From a virus (lineage: Duplodnaviria > Heunggongvirae > Uroviricota > Caudoviricetes), in IMG/VR virus record IMGVR_UViG_2541047726_000007: a DNA stretch of 23,312 nucleotides; one strand, written 5' to 3'. Of this stretch, positions 1,774 through 22,210 are shown piece after piece (positions within the stretch are counted from its first letter, which is position 1; every line of letters begins with the position of its first letter). Position numbers and translations under genes: made by a program. The notes beneath the pieces were generated by a model, which ran no database searches, was not told the origin of the DNA, and saw only the letters and a list, made by a program, of their open reading frames with translations.

Positions 1774-2058
1774 TTATTCAGTGCCGATATTTACCTTTAT
1801 CGCGTATACCTTTACCGGTTTATCACCGAAGTGCGGATGTGTGATTGTCTTCACTTCATATCCGTCATACGGAACATCAACTCTGCGGCTGGAATCGTCG
1901 CGCTTCGGATATCCCTTTGTGATAATCAGGCGGTCATGCTTACGGTTAACGAGGCGCTTTTTCCAGTAGTCATTACACAGGCGATACTCTTCCGTTTTCT
2001 CTCCGCGAATCATGGCATCGAAGTATTCACCTTTAACGGCAAGTTGCAGGTTAGCCAC
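1774..2058 (-). CDS. ASCH/PUA-like domain protein (94 aa), GTG start
   Basis: N-terminal KGEYFDAMIRGEKTEEYR resembles the ASCH signature; GTG at 2056-2058 lies 2 nt after the upstream TAA and is preceded by GGAG. Confidence 0.5.
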   Translation of the reverse strand: MANLQLAVKGEYFDAMIRGEKTEEYRLCNDYWKKRLVNRKHDRLIITKGYPKRDDSSRRVDVPYDGYEVKTITHPHFGDKPVKVYAIKVNIGTE

Positions 2059-2791
2059 GGTTAACTCCTTGCTGTGTGGCGTCGAGTAATAAATCCCACA
2101 ACCGCTGAGAGCAATTTCCGCATGTACAGCGTTGACCCACAACGTTTATCGCGTTGCTGATTTCCGGCGTTACCTGTTTAGGAACCATAACCCAACCATC
2201 CGGAGTTACCGGAAGCGAGAACGGCAGCACATCTCTGTGAACAAGTTTTTGCTGTGACAGGTTATCCAGAACTTTCTGTACTGCTGCATCACCGAATACA
2301 CCAAGCGCATCTGCCATAACTCCTACAACCTGATAAGCCTCAGCGCATACCGTGGATAAACCATCCGGAATTACCGGAGAGTTGCCGGGTTCTTTAATGT
2401 GCAAGCGAGGCTCACCATCTTTTGGCTCAGGCCACTGGCGCTCCATGTTGATCTTCAATTTATCTTCCATAGCAACGGTAATTTCAGCATCGCTGATGCC
2501 AGCACGGCGCTGTGCATCCCACAACAGAAACTGCATATCAGCCCACTCGCTAAGATCGTCTGGTTCGGCTGCGGCTTCCAGTGCCTCTTTTGAGAGGTGT
2601 TTCAGTGGACCAATGGGGCCAACGCAGCCAAATGTGGAGTCAGACCATTTGGCATGCTCGTGGCGAATCTGTTCGCGTTCCAGTGATGCCAGTGCAATTC
2701 GTGCTAGTTCCATTTGTTCGCCACGAGTAAGCCCGTTTTCAAGCGGATTTTTAATGAACAATTCAATACGTTCTTTGGTAATAGTGGTCAT
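2051..2791 (-). CDS. Hypothetical ea-region protein (246 aa)
   Basis: Long ORF; its N-terminal module (ARIALASLE) is shared with the gene at 3550-3804. Confidence 0.6.
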   Translation of the reverse strand: MTTITKERIELFIKNPLENGLTRGEQMELARIALASLEREQIRHEHAKWSDSTFGCVGPIGPLKHLSKEALEAAAEPDDLSEWADMQFLLWDAQRRAGISDAEITVAMEDKLKINMERQWPEPKDGEPRLHIKEPGNSPVIPDGLSTVCAEAYQVVGVMADALGVFGDAAVQKVLDNLSQQKLVHRDVLPFSLPVTPDGWVMVPKQVTPEISNAINVVGQRCTCGNCSQRLWDLLLDATQQGVNRG

Positions 2792-2997
2792 GTGTTAATC
2801 CTCAAAACTTTATGCCCGGGCGCAAAAGTACGTGTTTTGTCTTTGCTTATTCGCCACCCGTCTTTACGGGCCTCTTTTGCACAACCAGACCATGACGTAC
2901 CGATATACTCACCGAAGTCTGGCACTGGATATACACCTTCCGTACACTGGCGACAATCACAATAGAGATGCATGGTGTAACTTGCGGCAATAGCCAT
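2788..2997 (-). CDS. Hypothetical Cys-rich small protein (69 aa)
   Basis: ATG at 2995-2997 lies 1 nt after the upstream TGA (TGAtATG coupling); the longer 83-aa track ORF would overlap the upstream gene by 41 nt. Confidence 0.45.
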   Translation of the reverse strand: MAIAASYTMHLYCDCRQCTEGVYPVPDFGEYIGTSWSGCAKEARKDGWRISKDKTRTFAPGHKVLRINT

Positions 2998-2998
2998 A

Positions 2999-3607
2999 TC
3001 ACTCTCTTTTTCCCTGAAGCATGGCAGCGTGGCAGGCATCCTCTACGCCCTTAACTGCATCTGCGCAGTAGTTATAGCGATTGCATTCCACTAACTTCTG
3101 CCTGAGATTTTCAATTGCTTGCGCGACATCAGCCTGTATTACAGGAACTGGCGGAACGGCTGTCTGCTGCTCTCGAACGTCATTAGTCGCTATCGGTTCT
3201 GCTGCCAACTGACTGGCATATTTGTTAATGGTAACGATAAGCTCTTGCTCAGCCTCATCCAGACAATCACCGATACCTCGCCTGTCGCCGTCAAAATCAT
3301 CGAAATCAGCACGAACTCTGGCAAATTTCAGGATTGCGGACAACACCTCACCAGGAATTACCGGAGAGTTGGTTGACGTTTCCGAAATTTCCCGAAAATT
3401 ATTGGTTGACGAATTCGCGTTTTCCCGAAAGTTTCCGGCATGAAGCATAGCCGCGCGGCAGGCGTTCCAGCCTCTCACCTCTGCAATAGCGGCAACAGCA
3501 TCGACCGCGTACATGCTAAGAGGGTTAGGCATTGGTTTTTCTTCAGGTACTACTGGCACTGGCTTGGCATATATAGCGGCTGAACATACCAACCCTTTGA
3601 TAACCAA
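2999..3607 (-). CDS. Hypothetical ea-region protein (202 aa)
   Basis: ORF in the operon; shares the NSPVIPGE motif and an 18-nt DNA repeat with the gene at 2051-2791. Confidence 0.55.
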   Translation of the reverse strand: MVIKGLVCSAAIYAKPVPVVPEEKPMPNPLSMYAVDAVAAIAEVRGWNACRAAMLHAGNFRENANSSTNNFREISETSTNSPVIPGEVLSAILKFARVRADFDDFDGDRRGIGDCLDEAEQELIVTINKYASQLAAEPIATNDVREQQTAVPPVPVIQADVAQAIENLRQKLVECNRYNYCADAVKGVEDACHAAMLQGKRE

Positions 3608-9928: not shown

Positions 9929-10510
9929 ATGAACAACTCATGGTGGCAGGAACTAATGCATTTTTTCCTGCAAGGAATGACACTTAAACAGTTGATTCAT
10001 ATGCTAATCATCCTGATCATATTGATTATTGTTATGCCGGTAAGCGTAAAAGAATGGATAAACCTGCATAGTCCAGAAATCCTTCCTCATTACTGGATGT
10101 ATTACATCCTGTTGTTTTGCGTTAGCTATGTGCTTAACGGCGTTGTTAATTCCGCTTATCACGCTGTGACTGAAAGAATTGAGGTATTCGCTGCTCAGAA
10201 GCGCAAATCTAAAGAAGAAAAATATGTGCAAGATTTGTTTGATTCGTTAACTCTTGGAGAAAGAGCGTATTTGGCATTCGCTGTAGCCGCTAATAACCAG
10301 CTACAAACGGAAAAGGGCGCTCATGAATCAATTTCATTGCTCAAAAAAGGACTCCTCGTTCGAAGGCCTCCTGCTGTTGGATATCCTGATACCGACCGTT
10401 TCGTTATCCCTGAAAGCTATAGACATGAGTGCTACATTAGGTTTGCCGGGAAGGCAGACAGCCTTATGGATGAACTTATCGCTCAGGATAAGCATGGCAA
10501 AAACAAGTAA
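9929..10510 (+). CDS. sieB: Superinfection exclusion protein B (membrane protein)
   Basis: 193-aa product with hydrophobic N-terminal helices, lambda SieB-like; transcribed opposite to the pL operon as in lambda. Confidence 0.85.
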   Translation: MNNSWWQELMHFFLQGMTLKQLIHMLIILIILIIVMPVSVKEWINLHSPEILPHYWMYYILLFCVSYVLNGVVNSAYHAVTERIEVFAAQKRKSKEEKYVQDLFDSLTLGERAYLAFAVAANNQLQTEKGAHESISLLKKGLLVRRPPAVGYPDTDRFVIPESYRHECYIRFAGKADSLMDELIAQDKHGKNK

Positions 10511-11020: not shown

Positions 11021-11199
11021 AATTTGTTGTAAGTTGGCGTGGTTTTTTATAACGCTTTGTATTTAATAGTGTTGTTTTTTAGCGTGGATGTATTGCCTCG
11101 GCGATGTAAGGAGAGATCAGAATTGCGTGGTTTAGTGGGTTGCATCTATTTATTTTTCAATAAATATAATTGGTTATGTGTTTTTAGGTGGGCGAACGT

Positions 11200-11232
11200 G
11201 AGGCAAAGAAAACCCGGCGCTGAGGCCGGGTT
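11200..11232 (-). terminator. Intrinsic terminator ending the cI-geneA-geneB operon
   Basis: Perfect 8-bp stem AACCCGGC/GCCGGGTT with a 6-nt loop, followed on the minus strand by UUUUCUUUG, 3 nt after the gene B stop. Confidence 0.7.
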
Positions 11233-11235
11233 GTA

Positions 11236-11988
11236 TTATGCTGCAAGTCTCTTAACCCAAGTCTCTCTTTTGGAGAATGGTAGAACTTGGCTTGATTCAT
11301 GGAAGAGTAAGGAGAGTTGTTGCATTTGATCACCAATTGCTTCGCTGTCTATAACAACAAATCTGTTGTTATACTCCTCACTTGAAGCTTTAAGATCAAT
11401 TAGTTTCCCAAGCAATGAGTAAGCACTATTCCAGCTTCCTCCGTGTTTCACGCTTGATGTAAAAACGTATTTAGGTATGTCGGTTTTTATTGTTACAGGG
11501 ACGGTAATTTGATGTCCACTCAAGCCATATACGTTTTCACGAAGAGAAAGTGCGTCTCTAAGCTCTGTGTGATATAGATAATCAATAACCATACTTTCAA
11601 ACTTTTCAGCTTGAACTGGCTGATACCAGTCTAACGACAAAGTTGATGCGAGTATACCAGCTCTAATTATGTTCGATGTAATCGCACCGACATCCTTTTC
11701 TGTTGCCCAAGCAATGATTTCTCCTCGAGCATTGAGTTCTGCGCCTTCTTTAAGCAGTAATTGTCGTATCTCATCAAGTCGTTTTTTGGTAAGCGAGATC
11801 CCTCTTGCCTCCATATTCATTAAGGCATCGCATCTGTCACTAACTAAATACCTACCATTGACTTCACGGATAAAGGCACCGACATGCTCTCCATCATCAC
11901 AGTAAGTGAATGGACTGATAATTCTCAAGGTCTTGCCTATTGGATGGCATTCGAAACCTAGTTGTGAGATCACTGTTGAGCACATCAT
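11236..11988 (-). CDS. Hypothetical protein, rex-position cassette gene B (250 aa)
   Basis: Long ORF whose ATG overlaps the gene A stop (ATGA); AT-rich; no transmembrane segments evident. Confidence 0.7.
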   Translation of the reverse strand: MMCSTVISQLGFECHPIGKTLRIISPFTYCDDGEHVGAFIREVNGRYLVSDRCDALMNMEARGISLTKKRLDEIRQLLLKEGAELNARGEIIAWATEKDVGAITSNIIRAGILASTLSLDWYQPVQAEKFESMVIDYLYHTELRDALSLRENVYGLSGHQITVPVTIKTDIPKYVFTSSVKHGGSWNSAYSLLGKLIDLKASSEEYNNRFVVIDSEAIGDQMQQLSLLFHESSQVLPFSKRETWVKRLAA

Positions 11989-12542
11989 ATTCCAAACCCC
12001 ATTTGCCCCGACTCATCTTCAAGCGGTAAAGGTATTCTCCCAGAGTAAGTTATGTTCAGATGTTTACAGAAGTAATTCCAATACCCTACCAGGTCATCTG
12101 GGTTTATGTCATCTTCGATTGGAAACGCTATTCTATCACTATAGTATCCAGCTTCTTCATAGTATACATGGTAGTGAGCACCGTAAATGATATCTTGGTA
12201 CTTCGGATGATCGACCTTGTAACTATTCGTGTGTTTGTCAAAGTGATAGGTATCTACCGCGAAAACCCTCTTGTTATGATAGAAAGCAATAATATTTATT
12301 TTAGGGTAAGAAATCGGGTCATCAGGTTCTGAATCCTGATCTGGTTTCCATTTCAGTTCAAACTTTAGCCCTTGTATAGGTATACAATCCTCATCCAAGG
12401 GGATGATATGGGCTTGTAGCCACATATCAGAGCGACTTGGTTTCTGTTTCCATTTAACGCCAGAAAAGTTAACTATTTTTTTACAATAAAGTACTTTATC
12501 AACTTCTACTTGGCTTGGCTGATAATCATCTATTTTTGCCAA
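11985..12542 (-). CDS. Hypothetical protein, rex-position cassette gene A (185 aa; TTG start, uncertain)
   Basis: ORF 39 nt downstream of cI; AT-rich; Tyr/His/Asp-rich, no recognisable motif. Confidence 0.6.
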   Translation of the reverse strand: MAKIDDYQPSQVEVDKVLYCKKIVNFSGVKWKQKPSRSDMWLQAHIIPLDEDCIPIQGLKFELKWKPDQDSEPDDPISYPKINIIAFYHNKRVFAVDTYHFDKHTNSYKVDHPKYQDIIYGAHYHVYYEEAGYYSDRIAFPIEDDINPDDLVGYWNYFCKHLNITYSGRIPLPLEDESGQMGFGI

Positions 12543-12581
12543 TGTTTACCGCCCTGTAAATTGTAGATAAAAGTGGTTTCA

Positions 12582-13235
12582 TCACCCAAACGTCTCTTCA
12601 GGCCATTGGCTGGCGATAACTTTCCCCACAACGGAACAACTCTCATTGCATGGGATCATTGGGTATTGTGGGTTTAGTGGCTGTAGAAACACCTGACCGC
12701 TATCCCTGATCAGTTTCTTGAAGGTAAATTCATCACCACCAAGTCTGGCTATGCAGAAATCGCCGGGCTCAACAGCTTGCTCAGGGTCAACCAGAATTAA
12801 CATCCCGTCAGGAAAGCTGGGTTTGGAACCTGTTGGTGCGGTCATTGAGTTACCTTCAACCTCAAGCCAGAATGCAGAGTCACTGGCTTTTTTGGTTGTG
12901 CTTACCAATCTCTCCGCATCGCCTTTGGTAAAGGTTCTGAGTTCTGGAGAGAACATCCCAGCCTGAACATGAGAAAAAACAGGGTACTCATATTGTTTTT
13001 TAACTGGGGCCGATGAGTATTCGCCAACAGGTGAAAATGTCCCGTCGTGGTTGAATGATATGTTATCAATACCAAGGTATTTAAACACCACACCAATATC
13101 ACTAAGAGATGGATGACGAGATCCGCGCAACCAGTGTCCAATCCCACCCTGCGTCATACCTAGCTCTTCGGCTAACTTCTCTTGAGTTATGCCGAGCTCT
13201 TTCATTCTGGATCTAGCCAGTTCATACCATTTCAT
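12582..13235 (-). CDS. cI: CI repressor, chimeric: lambda-type C-terminal domain with a non-lambda HTH N-terminal domain
   Basis: C-terminal about 130 aa match remembered lambda cI ([13 protein letters not shown]...[10 protein letters not shown]); the N-terminus differs; start taken as ATG 13233-13235 (an ATG two codons upstream is also possible). Confidence 0.85.
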
Positions 13236-13352
13236 TTTCATGTCCTTATTATTACGCTCTGTACTGGAACCATCCATGCACAATGTGTATTTTTACTTGT
13301 ATTCGCAAAGTACATATTGTATTTTTTTATTCGTGTTTACTATGGAGGGCAT
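13236..13352. promoter_or_regulatory. Divergent pRM/pR operator-promoter region (oR candidate)
   Basis: AT-rich 117-bp spacer between divergent cI and cro with several imperfect palindromes containing GTAC/TGTA half-sites. Confidence 0.5.
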
Positions 13353-14938: not shown

Positions 14939-15636
14939 AAAACATCGCCGCACAGATGGTTAATTTTGACCGTGAGCAGATGCGTCGGATCGCCAACAAC
15001 ATGCCGGAACAGTACGACGAAAAGCCGCAGGTACAGCAGGTAGCGCAGATCATCAACGGTGTGTTCAGCCAGTTACTGGCAACTTTCCCGGCGAGTCTGG
15101 CTAACCGTGACCAGAACGAACTGAACGAAATCCGCCGCCAGTGGGTTCTGGCTTTCCGGGAAAACGGGATCACCACAATGGAACAGGTTAACGCAGGAAT
15201 GCGCGTAGCCCGTCGGCAGAATCGACCATTTCTGCCATCACCCGGGCAGTTTGTTGCATGGTGCCGGGAAGAAGCATCCGTTATCGCCGGACTGCCAAAC
15301 GTCAGCGAGCTGGTTGATATGGTTTACGAGTATTGCCGGAAGCGAGGCCTGTATCCGGATGCAGAGTCTTATCCGTGGAAATCGAACGCGCACTACTGGC
15401 TGGTTACCAACCTGTACCAGAACATGCGGGCCAATGCGCTGACTGACGCGGAATTACGACGCAAGGCTGCCGATGAACTGACCTGTATGACAGCGCGAAT
15501 TAACCGTGGTGAGACGATACCTGAACCAGTAAAACAACTTCCTGTCATGGGCGGCAGACCTCTAAATCGTGTTCAGGCGCTGGCGAAGATCGCAGAAATT
15601 AAAGCTAAGTTAGGACTGAAAGGAGCAAGTGTATGA
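14935..15636 (+). CDS. P: Replication protein P (DnaB helicase loader)
   Basis: 233-aa lambda P-like product; overlaps the O stop. Confidence 0.9.
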   Translation: MKNIAAQMVNFDREQMRRIANNMPEQYDEKPQVQQVAQIINGVFSQLLATFPASLANRDQNELNEIRRQWVLAFRENGITTMEQVNAGMRVARRQNRPFLPSPGQFVAWCREEASVIAGLPNVSELVDMVYEYCRKRGLYPDAESYPWKSNAHYWLVTNLYQNMRANALTDAELRRKAADELTCMTARINRGETIPEPVKQLPVMGGRPLNRVQALAKIAEIKAKLGLKGASV

Positions 15637-15923
15637 CGGGCAAAGAGGCAATTATTCATTACCTGGGGACGCATAATAGCTTCTGTGCGCCGGACGTTGC
15701 CGCGCTAACAGGCGCAACAGTAACCAGCATAAATCAGGCCGCGGCTAAAATGGCACGGGCAGGTCTTCTGGTTATCGAAGGTAAGGTCTGGCGAACGGTG
15801 TATTACCGGTTTGCTACCAAGGAAGAACGGGAAGGAAAGATGAGCACGAACCTGATTTTTAAGGAGTGTCGCCAGAGTGCCACGATGAAACGGATATTGG
15901 CGGTATATGGAGTTAAAAGATGA
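15633..15923 (+). CDS. ren: Ren (rex exclusion protection), 96 aa
   Basis: Lambda Ren-like sequence and position. Confidence 0.8.
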   Translation: MTGKEAIIHYLGTHNSFCAPDVAALTGATVTSINQAAAKMARAGLLVIEGKVWRTVYYRFATKEEREGKMSTNLIFKECRQSATMKRILAVYGVKR

Positions 15924-18841: not shown

Positions 18842-19924
18842 TTAGAACTGATAAACCAGACCTACAGCGACGATGTCGTCGGTATCAATACCAGCTGTTT
18901 TGGTAAACTTACTATCGTCAATTAAGTTGATTTTGTAATCAACAAAAGTGGACATGTTTTTATTAAAGTAGTAAGTAGCACCGACATCGACATACTTGAC
19001 TAAGTCTCGGTCACCATGAACACCAAGGTCTTTACCTTTTGACTGAAGGTAAGCAACAGATGGACGCAGACCGAAGTCAAACTGATATTGTGCTACTGCT
19101 TCAAAGTTTTGTGCTTTGTTTGCAATATGGTTATTACCAAAAACGGTCATATTCTGAGTTTCAGAATATGTGGTAGCCAGATAGATATTGTTCGCATCAT
19201 ATTTCAGGCCTGCAGCCCATACTTCCGCATTTTTGCCGGAGGCATTGAATTTGCTCTTACCATAGGCGACCTGACCGTCAGTGCGATCTGATTTAGCATA
19301 GGTTGCACCCACGCCGAATCCTTCATACTCATAAGTAGTGGAGAAACCGAAACCATCACCATTGGCTTCAGTTACGTCAGTGCGGTCATTTTTACCCTGA
19401 TACTGAGCAGCAAAGTTCAGGCCATCGACCAGACCAAAGAAGTCGTTGTTACGATAAGTTGCAACACCAGTAGTGCGACCAGTCATGAACACATCTGTTT
19501 GGGTCCAGGTATCACCACCGAATTCTGGCAGAACGTCAGTCCACGCACCGATGTCGTATGCTACACCGTAGTTACGGCCGTAATCGATTGAGCCGTAATC
19601 ACCAAATTTCAGGCCTGCAAATGCAAGACGGGTTTTGTCTTTGGAAGAACCTTGAGATTCAGCACGGTTGCCTTTGAATTCATATTCCCACTGACCGAAA
19701 CCAGTCAGTTGATCGTTGATTTGGGTTTCACCTTTGAAGCCAAGACGGGCATAAGTAGTATCACCATCATCTGCATCATTAGAGGAGAAGTAGTGCTTGG
19801 CATTAACTTTCCCGTATAGATCCAGCTTGTTACTGTCTTTATTATAAATTTCAGCTGCCTGAGCAGACATCGCCATCAGTACTGATGCAGCTACAGCAGA
19901 AATTGCCACTGTTAATTTTTTCAT
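18842..19924 (-). CDS. nmpC: Outer-membrane porin, OmpC/OmpF family (NmpC / Lc-type lysogenic-conversion porin), intact
   Basis: Signal peptide [23 protein letters not shown] followed by porin beta-barrel features and a C-terminal ...VGLVYQF. Confidence 0.9.
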
Positions 19925-20350
19925 TGTACGCCCTTTTTTTGAACTTTTATTAAAAAATGATGTCACTGCGCGATAAATATTCATCTAATCAATGTGATTA
20001 TTTCAAGATGTAAGTTTTAGTTTCTCATTTAATTTGTGAAGTAGATCTCTATTTTTATCTGAACCTTTTCTATCTAATCCTATTCATGGCTCTTGTCTGA
20101 ACAAAAATAAATCTATTAGCTAATTTATATTAATGGCACTTATTTATAAGTGCTCTATAATTCTTTAGCTTAATTTAAACAAACTAAAAATAACATCGGA
20201 AATTATTAACTGGTTATTTGTTGAAGTTTTCTTATGCATTTGTGGTGGTGTTTTGAACACTCGGTGGCATTCTCACAAATATCATTTAGTAGTTTACGTA
20301 CGTAAAAAATTGGTTATGCTGTTAAGAGTGGTTACTTCGTCACACAGCTT

Positions 20351-21706: not shown

Positions 21707-22210
21707 TTATTGATAGTGTTTTATGTTCAGATAATGCCCGATGACTTTGTCATGCAGCTCCACCGATTTTGAGAACGACAGCGACTTCCGTCCCAGCCGT
21801 GCCAGGTGCTGCCTCAGATTCAGGTTATGCCGCTCAATTCGCTGCGTATATCGCTTGCTGATTACGTGCAGCTTTCCCTTCAGGCGGGATTCATACAGCG
21901 GCCAGCCATCCGTCATCCATATCACCACGTCAAAGGGTGACAGCAGGCTCATAAGACGCCCCAGCGTCGCCATAGTGCGTTCACCGAATACGTGCGCAAC
22001 AACCGTCTTCCGGAGCCTGTCATACGCGTAAAACAGCCAGCGCTGGCGCGATTTAGCCCCGACGTATCCCCACTGTTCGTCCATTTCCGCGCAGACGATG
22101 ACGTCACTGCCCGGCTGTATGCGCGAGGTTACCGACTGCGGCCTGAGTTTTTTAAATGGCGGAAAATCGTGTTGAGGCCAACGCCCATAATGCGGGCGGT
22201 TGCCCGGCAT
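21707..22210 (-). CDS. insB: IS1 InsB reading frame (expressed as InsAB' by frameshift)
   Basis: 167-aa ORF overlapping insA, IS1 InsB-like. Confidence 0.85.

Follow-up and report, generated by a model that had tools for sequence, protein, structure and literature searches.

A repressor-linked gene pair in the rexAB slot of a lambda-like prophage as a candidate anti-phage defence module

In the lambda-like phage or prophage of IMG/VR record IMGVR_UViG_2541047726_000007 (23,312 nucleotides, the whole of which is referred to as the window in the following), the place held by rexA and rexB in phage lambda is taken by two coupled genes, A and B, which make a good candidate for repressor-linked prophage defence cargo. 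On balance, we consider this cassette to be probably a lysogen-expressed, two-component anti-phage defence module that acts by exclusion or abortive infection. We favour this assignment because the slot is known for lysogen-expressed defence genes (rexAB, bstA) and varies in its cargo from phage to phage, because the linkage to a repressor is invariant across unrelated prophage backbones, because the pair is homologous to a cassette found in restriction and BREX loci, an independent defence context, because the DefensePredictor study arrived at its own, independent prediction, and because the folds are typical of sensor-effector defence proteins. Among these lines of evidence, the constant repressor linkage is the strongest new result.

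The region around the cassette is shared with several known phages. Positions 11100–12700 are 100% identical in the Escherichia phages ev207, ev017, PhiR57_1 and PhiR63_2, and 98.5% identical in an Stx1a-converting phage. In the record of PhiR57_1, the annotated order is int ... exo-bet-gam-kil-cIII-ea10-ral / sieB / N / two hypothetical genes / cI / cro-cII-O-P-ren-nin-Q, where the two genes labelled hypothetical are A and B. The PhiR phages probably stem from the work of Brenes and Laub (2025; Cell Host Microbe 33:1004), in which the cassette may also have been screened.

The whole unit lies on the minus strand. It begins with a gene for a cI-type prophage repressor (12582–13283; Pfam Peptidase_S24, E 1e-28, and HTH_3, E 2e-10), which is annotated as cI in PhiR57_1 and is presumably the first gene of the PRM operon. 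A spacer of 39 nt (12543–12581), in which a pattern scan found no terminator-like site, carries a Shine-Dalgarno-like AGGGCGG 8–14 nt upstream of the TTG start of gene A (11985–12542; 185 aa). Gene B (11236–11988; 250 aa) is coupled to A through an ATGA stop/start overlap (11985–11988), and an intrinsic terminator, a hairpin with a T-run, follows at 11211–11232. Read from 11232 to 11211, its stem comprises 8 pairs, six of which are G-C, with a folding energy of −14.6 kcal/mol (z = −2.86 against shuffles), and the immunity-region records of mEp332, HK244 and HK542 carry a terminator annotation at the corresponding place. From this layout, cI, A and B would reasonably be expected to be co-transcribed. 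The first-pass annotation of this stretch had already described two coupled genes of these lengths with an ATGA overlap on the cI strand and a strong terminator behind them, and both descriptions are borne out here.

In an alignment with lambda, HK542 and 2B8, the terminator stem is identical to lambda tIMM base for base. Homology resumes exactly at this stem and extends into the pL region, and the cargo to its right is unrelated; the stem is the left boundary of an exchangeable slot, and the cassette, which runs from the cI stop to tIMM, therefore occupies precisely the slot of rexAB, just where the first-pass annotation had placed it. The interval between cI and N is a documented mosaic hotspot, occupied by rexAB in lambda and by the abortive-infection gene bstA in BTP1 (PMC8585504). 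Our survey of the slot added phage 2B8, with a NYN-domain gene, and HK542, with another gene pair, in keeping with a cargo that varies, and found that the A–B pair recurs beside repressors, as described below.

The likeness to lambda rexAB thus includes the slot, the strand, the terminator and the organization as a two-gene operon downstream of the repressor, and presumably also expression in the lysogen. The proteins themselves, however, are different. RexA and RexB have 279 and 144 aa, against 185 and 250 aa for A and B, and neither A nor B showed similarity to them, with E values of at least 1 in BLASTP against the two Rex sequences and negative bit scores against the family profiles. While RexB is a polytopic inner-membrane protein, A and B appear soluble: the highest Kyte-Doolittle hydropathy over 19 residues is 0.45 in A and 1.19 in B, compared with 2.39 in RexB, and hydropathy suggests neither a segment of transmembrane strength nor a signal peptide in either protein. 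The initial impression that the pair resembles neither RexA nor RexB and has no RexB-like transmembrane helices was therefore correct. BstA of the Salmonella prophage BTP1 is likewise encoded just downstream of a prophage repressor, an arrangement kept in diverse prophages of Gram-negative bacteria, and its expression in lysogens is high (PMC8585504). Unlike the A–B pair, it is a single protein. It has a self-immunity (aba) element, and the PADLOC scan, which returned only PDC-M24 models for A and B, detected no relation between them and BstA.

The composition of the cassette also sets it apart from its surroundings. Its GC content is 39.6% (A 38.2%, B 40.6%) versus 46.5% in the window, 46.3% in cI and 49.9% in N, and its GC3 is 34–36% versus 45–48% in cI and N (45% in cI). 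The cassette thus looks foreign; the AT-richness had been put at 37–40% GC by eye, an estimate close to these values.

Several other genes of the window deserve mention. The superinfection-exclusion gene sieB (9929–10510, plus strand; Pfam E 9e-22, phrog_1301) lies between N and ral, beside the cassette but on the other strand, so that a second exclusion function is present in the immunity-left region. Synteny with PhiR57_1, an identical phage that is annotated, indicates that ren (15633–15923, plus strand), whose product protects lambda from Rex exclusion, is retained despite the replacement of rexAB. Just downstream of the Q antiterminator gene, a gene on the minus strand (18842–19984) encodes an OmpC-type porin of 380 aa (Pfam Porin_1, E 2e-151), which resembles the phage-borne porin morons of the Lc/NmpC type. 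An IS1 transposase ORF (21707–22210, minus strand; DDE_Tnp_IS1, E 2e-78) is located within the late/lysis region, where the insertion element may interrupt this copy of the phage. Finally, a gene of the dATP/dGTP pyrophosphohydrolase family (2051–2791, minus strand; PF04447, E 8e-42) lies between int and the recombination genes.

The window carries other morons that are directed at the host, such as the porin, and one could accordingly take the cassette for a lysogenic-conversion moron whose benefit to the host, for instance in stress tolerance, virulence or metabolism, is unrelated to phages. Its AT-rich, foreign-looking composition and its occurrence in uropathogenic CFT073 and probiotic Nissle-type strains would suit this interpretation. 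We nevertheless consider it very unlikely, given that both proteins are predicted to be cytoplasmic from their hydropathy, that their folds are of the nucleic-acid-enzyme and chaperone type, and that distant homologues are found inside restriction and BREX loci. For the assignment as a defence module, we count the foreign composition, together with the strict co-inheritance of A and B, in favour.

B is built of two domains. Its N-terminal domain (residues ~1–120) belongs to DUF1828 (Pfam PF08861; 33.5 bits over residues 26–110, above the gathering cut-off of 22 bits) and has a secretion-chaperone/YbjN-like fold, with resemblance, among others, to the excision-controlling factor XisI and to regulator-type YbjN/DUF2170 proteins. 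The C-terminal domain (residues ~125–250) is a DUF1829 domain with the restriction-endonuclease-like alpha/beta core fold of the PD-(D/E)xK clan. The HHpred annotation published for WP_000968518.1, which is identical to B, makes the same assignments (DUF1828 99.5%; DUF1829, clan PDDEXK, 98.8%; DefensePredictor, PMC13092281). Searches of NCBIfam with A and B returned noise only, and searches of PDB sequences, with the single proteins as well as with family profiles, returned nothing real.

Across the B family, the residues C3, C14, D32, D51, D54, G89-E90, S157-G158-H159, P164, T177, W186, D198 and R209 are invariant. Conservation in the family and in the Pseudomonas homologue does not reveal the canonical D...(D/E)xK acidic residues; by strand order, the expected catalytic positions carry H159 and K173 with no conserved acidic pair, and the Pseudomonas homologue lacks K173. 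A nuclease activity of B is plausible but, because the canonical acidic residues are not evident, uncertain. In this respect, B also differs from Can2 and Card1, which combine a sensor with PD-(D/E)xK effectors: their sensor is a CARF domain, as opposed to the chaperone/YbjN-like domain of B, their canonical catalytic acidic residues have no evident counterpart in B, and the system described here includes A as a second obligatory protein. We also considered a Cys/His zinc site in B (C3, C14, C30, H35) and gave it little weight, as C30 and H35 are absent from the Pseudomonas homologue.

A is a soluble, acidic and beta-rich protein of 185 aa. While the profile and structure searches yielded folds for both domains of B (DUF1828, DUF1829) and the PDC-M24 match discussed below, family and structure searches gave no fold or family match above threshold for A. 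Its best lead in Pfam, DUF6978 (PF22398), scores 22 bits, below the gathering cut-off of 29.6 bits; this weak match recurs in 15 of 18 members of the A family, with a best E value of 1e-4. A profile search of 1.84 billion cluster representatives returned a small family, with only 20 members at E ≤ 1e-3, all of which have 99–184 residues, most of them 160–184. Down to 21–25% identity, W31, R92, D97, H104, N106, H123, H125, W155, F158, N163, P173 and Q180 are invariant, and the set D97/H104/N106/H123/H125 looks like a putative metal or catalytic centre. We considered a cupin-like or HIT-like protein on account of the H-x-H motif and dropped both ideas, as the structure search returned no fold match in their support, and discarded a match to the designed Kelch propeller SAKe6AC in the PDB (E 1e-9) as a summed-repeat artefact, with about 5 bits per repeat and per-domain E values >100.

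The last ~12 residues of A (PLEDESGQxGxx) are predicted to be disordered, yet are strongly conserved, a combination that is typical of a docking peptide. Extended peptides are typical ligands of secretion-chaperone folds, which would make the first domain of B the obvious candidate receptor for this tail.

Both proteins have been touched upon by earlier surveys of defence genes. In a PADLOC scan, they match the candidate models PDC-M24A and PDC-M24B, in the same A-then-B order, and no other model at E ≤ 1. The match of B to PDC-M24B is end to end (E 4.7e-10; residues 2–249 on model positions 4–254 of 256), and all 20 members of the B family examined match this model, the best with 8e-12. The match of A to PDC-M24A is partial (E 4.8e-4; residues 104–163 on model positions 79–134 of 148), and six of ten distant A relatives reach E < 0.01. 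Judged from these alignments, B would be a clear and A a marginal homologue of PDC-M24. PDC systems, which are themselves only candidates, came to light through their position inside BREX, DISARM or type I RM loci (Payne et al., 2024, bioRxiv 10.1101/2024.01.29.577857). Whereas PDC-M24 was defined inside such loci, the pair in the window belongs to a divergent branch that we find only in prophage immunity regions. The two share the two-gene A-then-B organization and the full-length alignment of B, and differ in A, where the similarity to PDC-M24 and DUF6978 is limited to the C-terminal third and, for the latter, lies below the Pfam cut-off.

A second, independent prediction comes from DefensePredictor (Science 2026, PMC13092281), in which the proteins WP_001062368.1 (A) and WP_000968518.1 (B) are labelled 'Predicted novel defense gene', with log-odds of 4.9–5.4 for A and 5.6–6.3 for B. 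Of the 94 units tested in that study, 45% were validated; neither this pair nor the accessions of the second allele described below occur in its tables, be it among the 94 tested or the 42 validated units (PMC13092281). Therein, DUF1829 was validated only in DS-6/HipAD, within DS-6B, for which the authors propose an antitoxin-like role (PMC13092281). While DS-6B thus holds a DUF1829 domain like B, the likeness ends there: DS-6B combines it with DUF3037, not DUF1828, its partner is a HipA-family kinase, and A has no counterpart.

Full-text literature searches with DUF1828, DUF1829, DUF6978, PDC-M24 and both WP accessions, to whose scope Brenes & Laub 2025 did not belong, returned only the DefensePredictor papers and irrelevant mentions. 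The first-pass annotation had spoken of an undescribed family, which goes too far, as B consists of the Pfam domains DUF1828 and DUF1829, the pair is represented in PHROG 2017 and 1960, and it had been flagged before; what stands is that we found no experimental characterization of the pair in the literature covered. The pair is already computationally flagged, and uncharacterised rather than undescribed.

Full-length homologues of A and B are found at 37–84% identity in Enterobacterales and Aeromonas and at about 24–29% in a Pseudomonas phage; we therefore regard both as real genes. The latter, the D3-like phage VB_PaD_phPA-G (PP083311.1), has an annotated B-like gene (29% identity), and an unannotated ORF at 2486–3004 is a clear member of the A family with all invariant residues, which overlaps the B-like gene by 4 nt and lies downstream of a CI-like repressor gene and a gene for a 216-aa protein. 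Throughout the loci examined (80 from IMG/VR and the bacterial ones), A is located directly upstream of B, with an overlap of 4 or 13 nt, and the divergence of A from its window copy correlates with that of B (r = 0.90).

Within E. coli, two alleles of the cassette occur. Of 5426 complete genomes, 241 carry the window allele, among them those of CFT073, a Nissle derivative and ATCC 11775, and 61 carry the second allele, among them those of ED1a and O104:H4; the pair is present in only five sequenced coliphages. The second allele encodes A' with 180 aa and B' with 258 aa (the pair WP_001074607.1 / WP_000528776.1; 51% identical) and also fills the slot between cI and N, next to a cI of lambda length (237 aa) and a Cro of the lambda type (PF09048). 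A partial match in E. coli FDAARGOS_1255, considered as an alternative cassette, actually reflects an insertion of the IS3-family element ISEc52 with an associated deletion, in which ISEc52 replaces most of A, all of B, N and part of sieB, leaving the first 165 nt of A beside cI.

In every context examined, a prophage repressor gene lies just upstream of the pair, on the same strand and divergent from a cro-like gene. In IMG/VR, this holds for all 80 contigs retrieved; in 77 of them the repressor is recognizable by BLAST against a small panel, and the other three carry different repressor types. It likewise holds for 11 bacterial contexts, including Aeromonas, Klebsiella, Thorsellia, Pectobacterium, Izhakiella and Yersinia, with two Providencia species, Xenorhabdus and Pantoea as further examples. 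The Klebsiella pair is part of a Rac-like prophage with a small HTH repressor. Some Izhakiella and Providencia prophages have a gene for a 113-aa DUF3024 protein (E 3e-27 for the copy in locus L016) between the repressor gene and A (L016, 3044–3385; L018, 3053–3394; L019, 3052–3393). This gene may belong to the system as an optional third component, or it may be a moron in its own right. The linkage to repressors across unrelated prophages argues for an expression of the pair in lysogens.

The same linkage would, however, also fit a role in lysogeny itself, and this speaks against the defence assignment. The pair could be an accessory part of the phage's own lysogeny circuit, with an influence on induction, excision or early DNA transactions. 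Its constant place beside repressors of many types in all contexts would thereby be explained, and the resemblance of the N-terminal domain of B to XisI and YbjN/DUF2170 regulators, among others, points in the same direction. Yet the slot is dispensable, with cargo that is swapped freely between phages with the same flanks (rexAB, the NYN-domain gene, other pairs), and the counts given above, 241 and 61 of the E. coli genomes and five coliphages, are low for a component of such a circuit. Furthermore, one and the same pair serves unrelated backbones and repressors, as is better expected of a portable moron, and the defence predictions were made without reference to the prophage-repressor context. 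We thus find a role in the lysogeny circuit quite improbable.

Small, translationally coupled and strictly co-inherited genes are also reminiscent of toxin-antitoxin-like addiction modules, in which one partner would be toxic and the other a labile neutralizer, and which would stabilize the prophage with an absent or secondary anti-phage effect. A degron-like C-terminus would suit the labile partner: the last residues of B are L-A-A in 18 of 25 family members, the Pseudomonas homologue (29% identity) terminates with ALAA, and such an LAA ending resembles the ssrA/ClpX C-terminal degron (ClpX C-motif 1). As a putative ClpX degron, this ending is a lead only, and since the C-terminus of B is helical in the predicted model, it may not be exposed. 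The occurrence of DUF1829 in DS-6B, proposed to be antitoxin-like by its authors, would also be compatible with an addiction module. On the other hand, A and B match no known toxin or antitoxin family among those searched, and a constant site downstream of a repressor is atypical of such modules. Many toxin-antitoxin systems are moreover defence systems, so that this explanation overlaps with the one we prefer; as an alternative to it, we consider it improbable.

We therefore return to the two-component defence module and outline how it might work. The mechanism that we infer may be mistaken at every step, from expression driven by PRM and the interaction of A with B to an enzymatic activity and the defence phenotype itself. 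Transcription reading through from the repressor promoter would express the pair in the lysogen, as it does rexAB, and A and B would form a complex, with B as sensor-scaffold. The DUF1828 domain may bind an extended peptide, with either the conserved, disordered tail of A or a protein from an invading phage as its ligand, whereas the DUF1829 domain with its restriction-endonuclease fold may bind or cut nucleic acid. A would contribute a second conserved, probably metal-dependent centre (D97, H104, N106, H123, H125). Infection by a heterologous phage would then change the state of the A–B complex and release a nucleic-acid-directed activity, whereby the invader would be blocked or the cell killed.

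A bolder version of this proposal is that the pair founds a new and mechanistically distinct defence family that is obligately tied to prophage immunity regions. In it, a chaperone-like domain would sense the proteins of invading phages and thereby control both a restriction-fold domain of a non-canonical, His-based kind and a partner whose novel fold bears a D-H-N-H-H metal centre. The activity of the module might be gated by the lysogenic state, for example through ClpXP turnover of B via its LAA ending once transcription from the repressor promoter stops. We put this forward as a speculation that we hold to be rather doubtful.

Specialists will not be surprised to find prophage defence between cI and N, as this is well known, and this exact pair was flagged before. 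The system is tractable, as it is present in about 4–5% of complete E. coli genomes, CFT073 and Nissle-type strains among them, and in the culturable phages ev207, ev017 and PhiR57_1. If validated, it would be a defence system composed of two DUFs and a protein with no recognizable fold, and would provide the first functional handle on DUF1828 and the PADLOC candidate PDC-M24. It would also reinforce the slot between the repressor gene and N as a place to mine for immunity genes.
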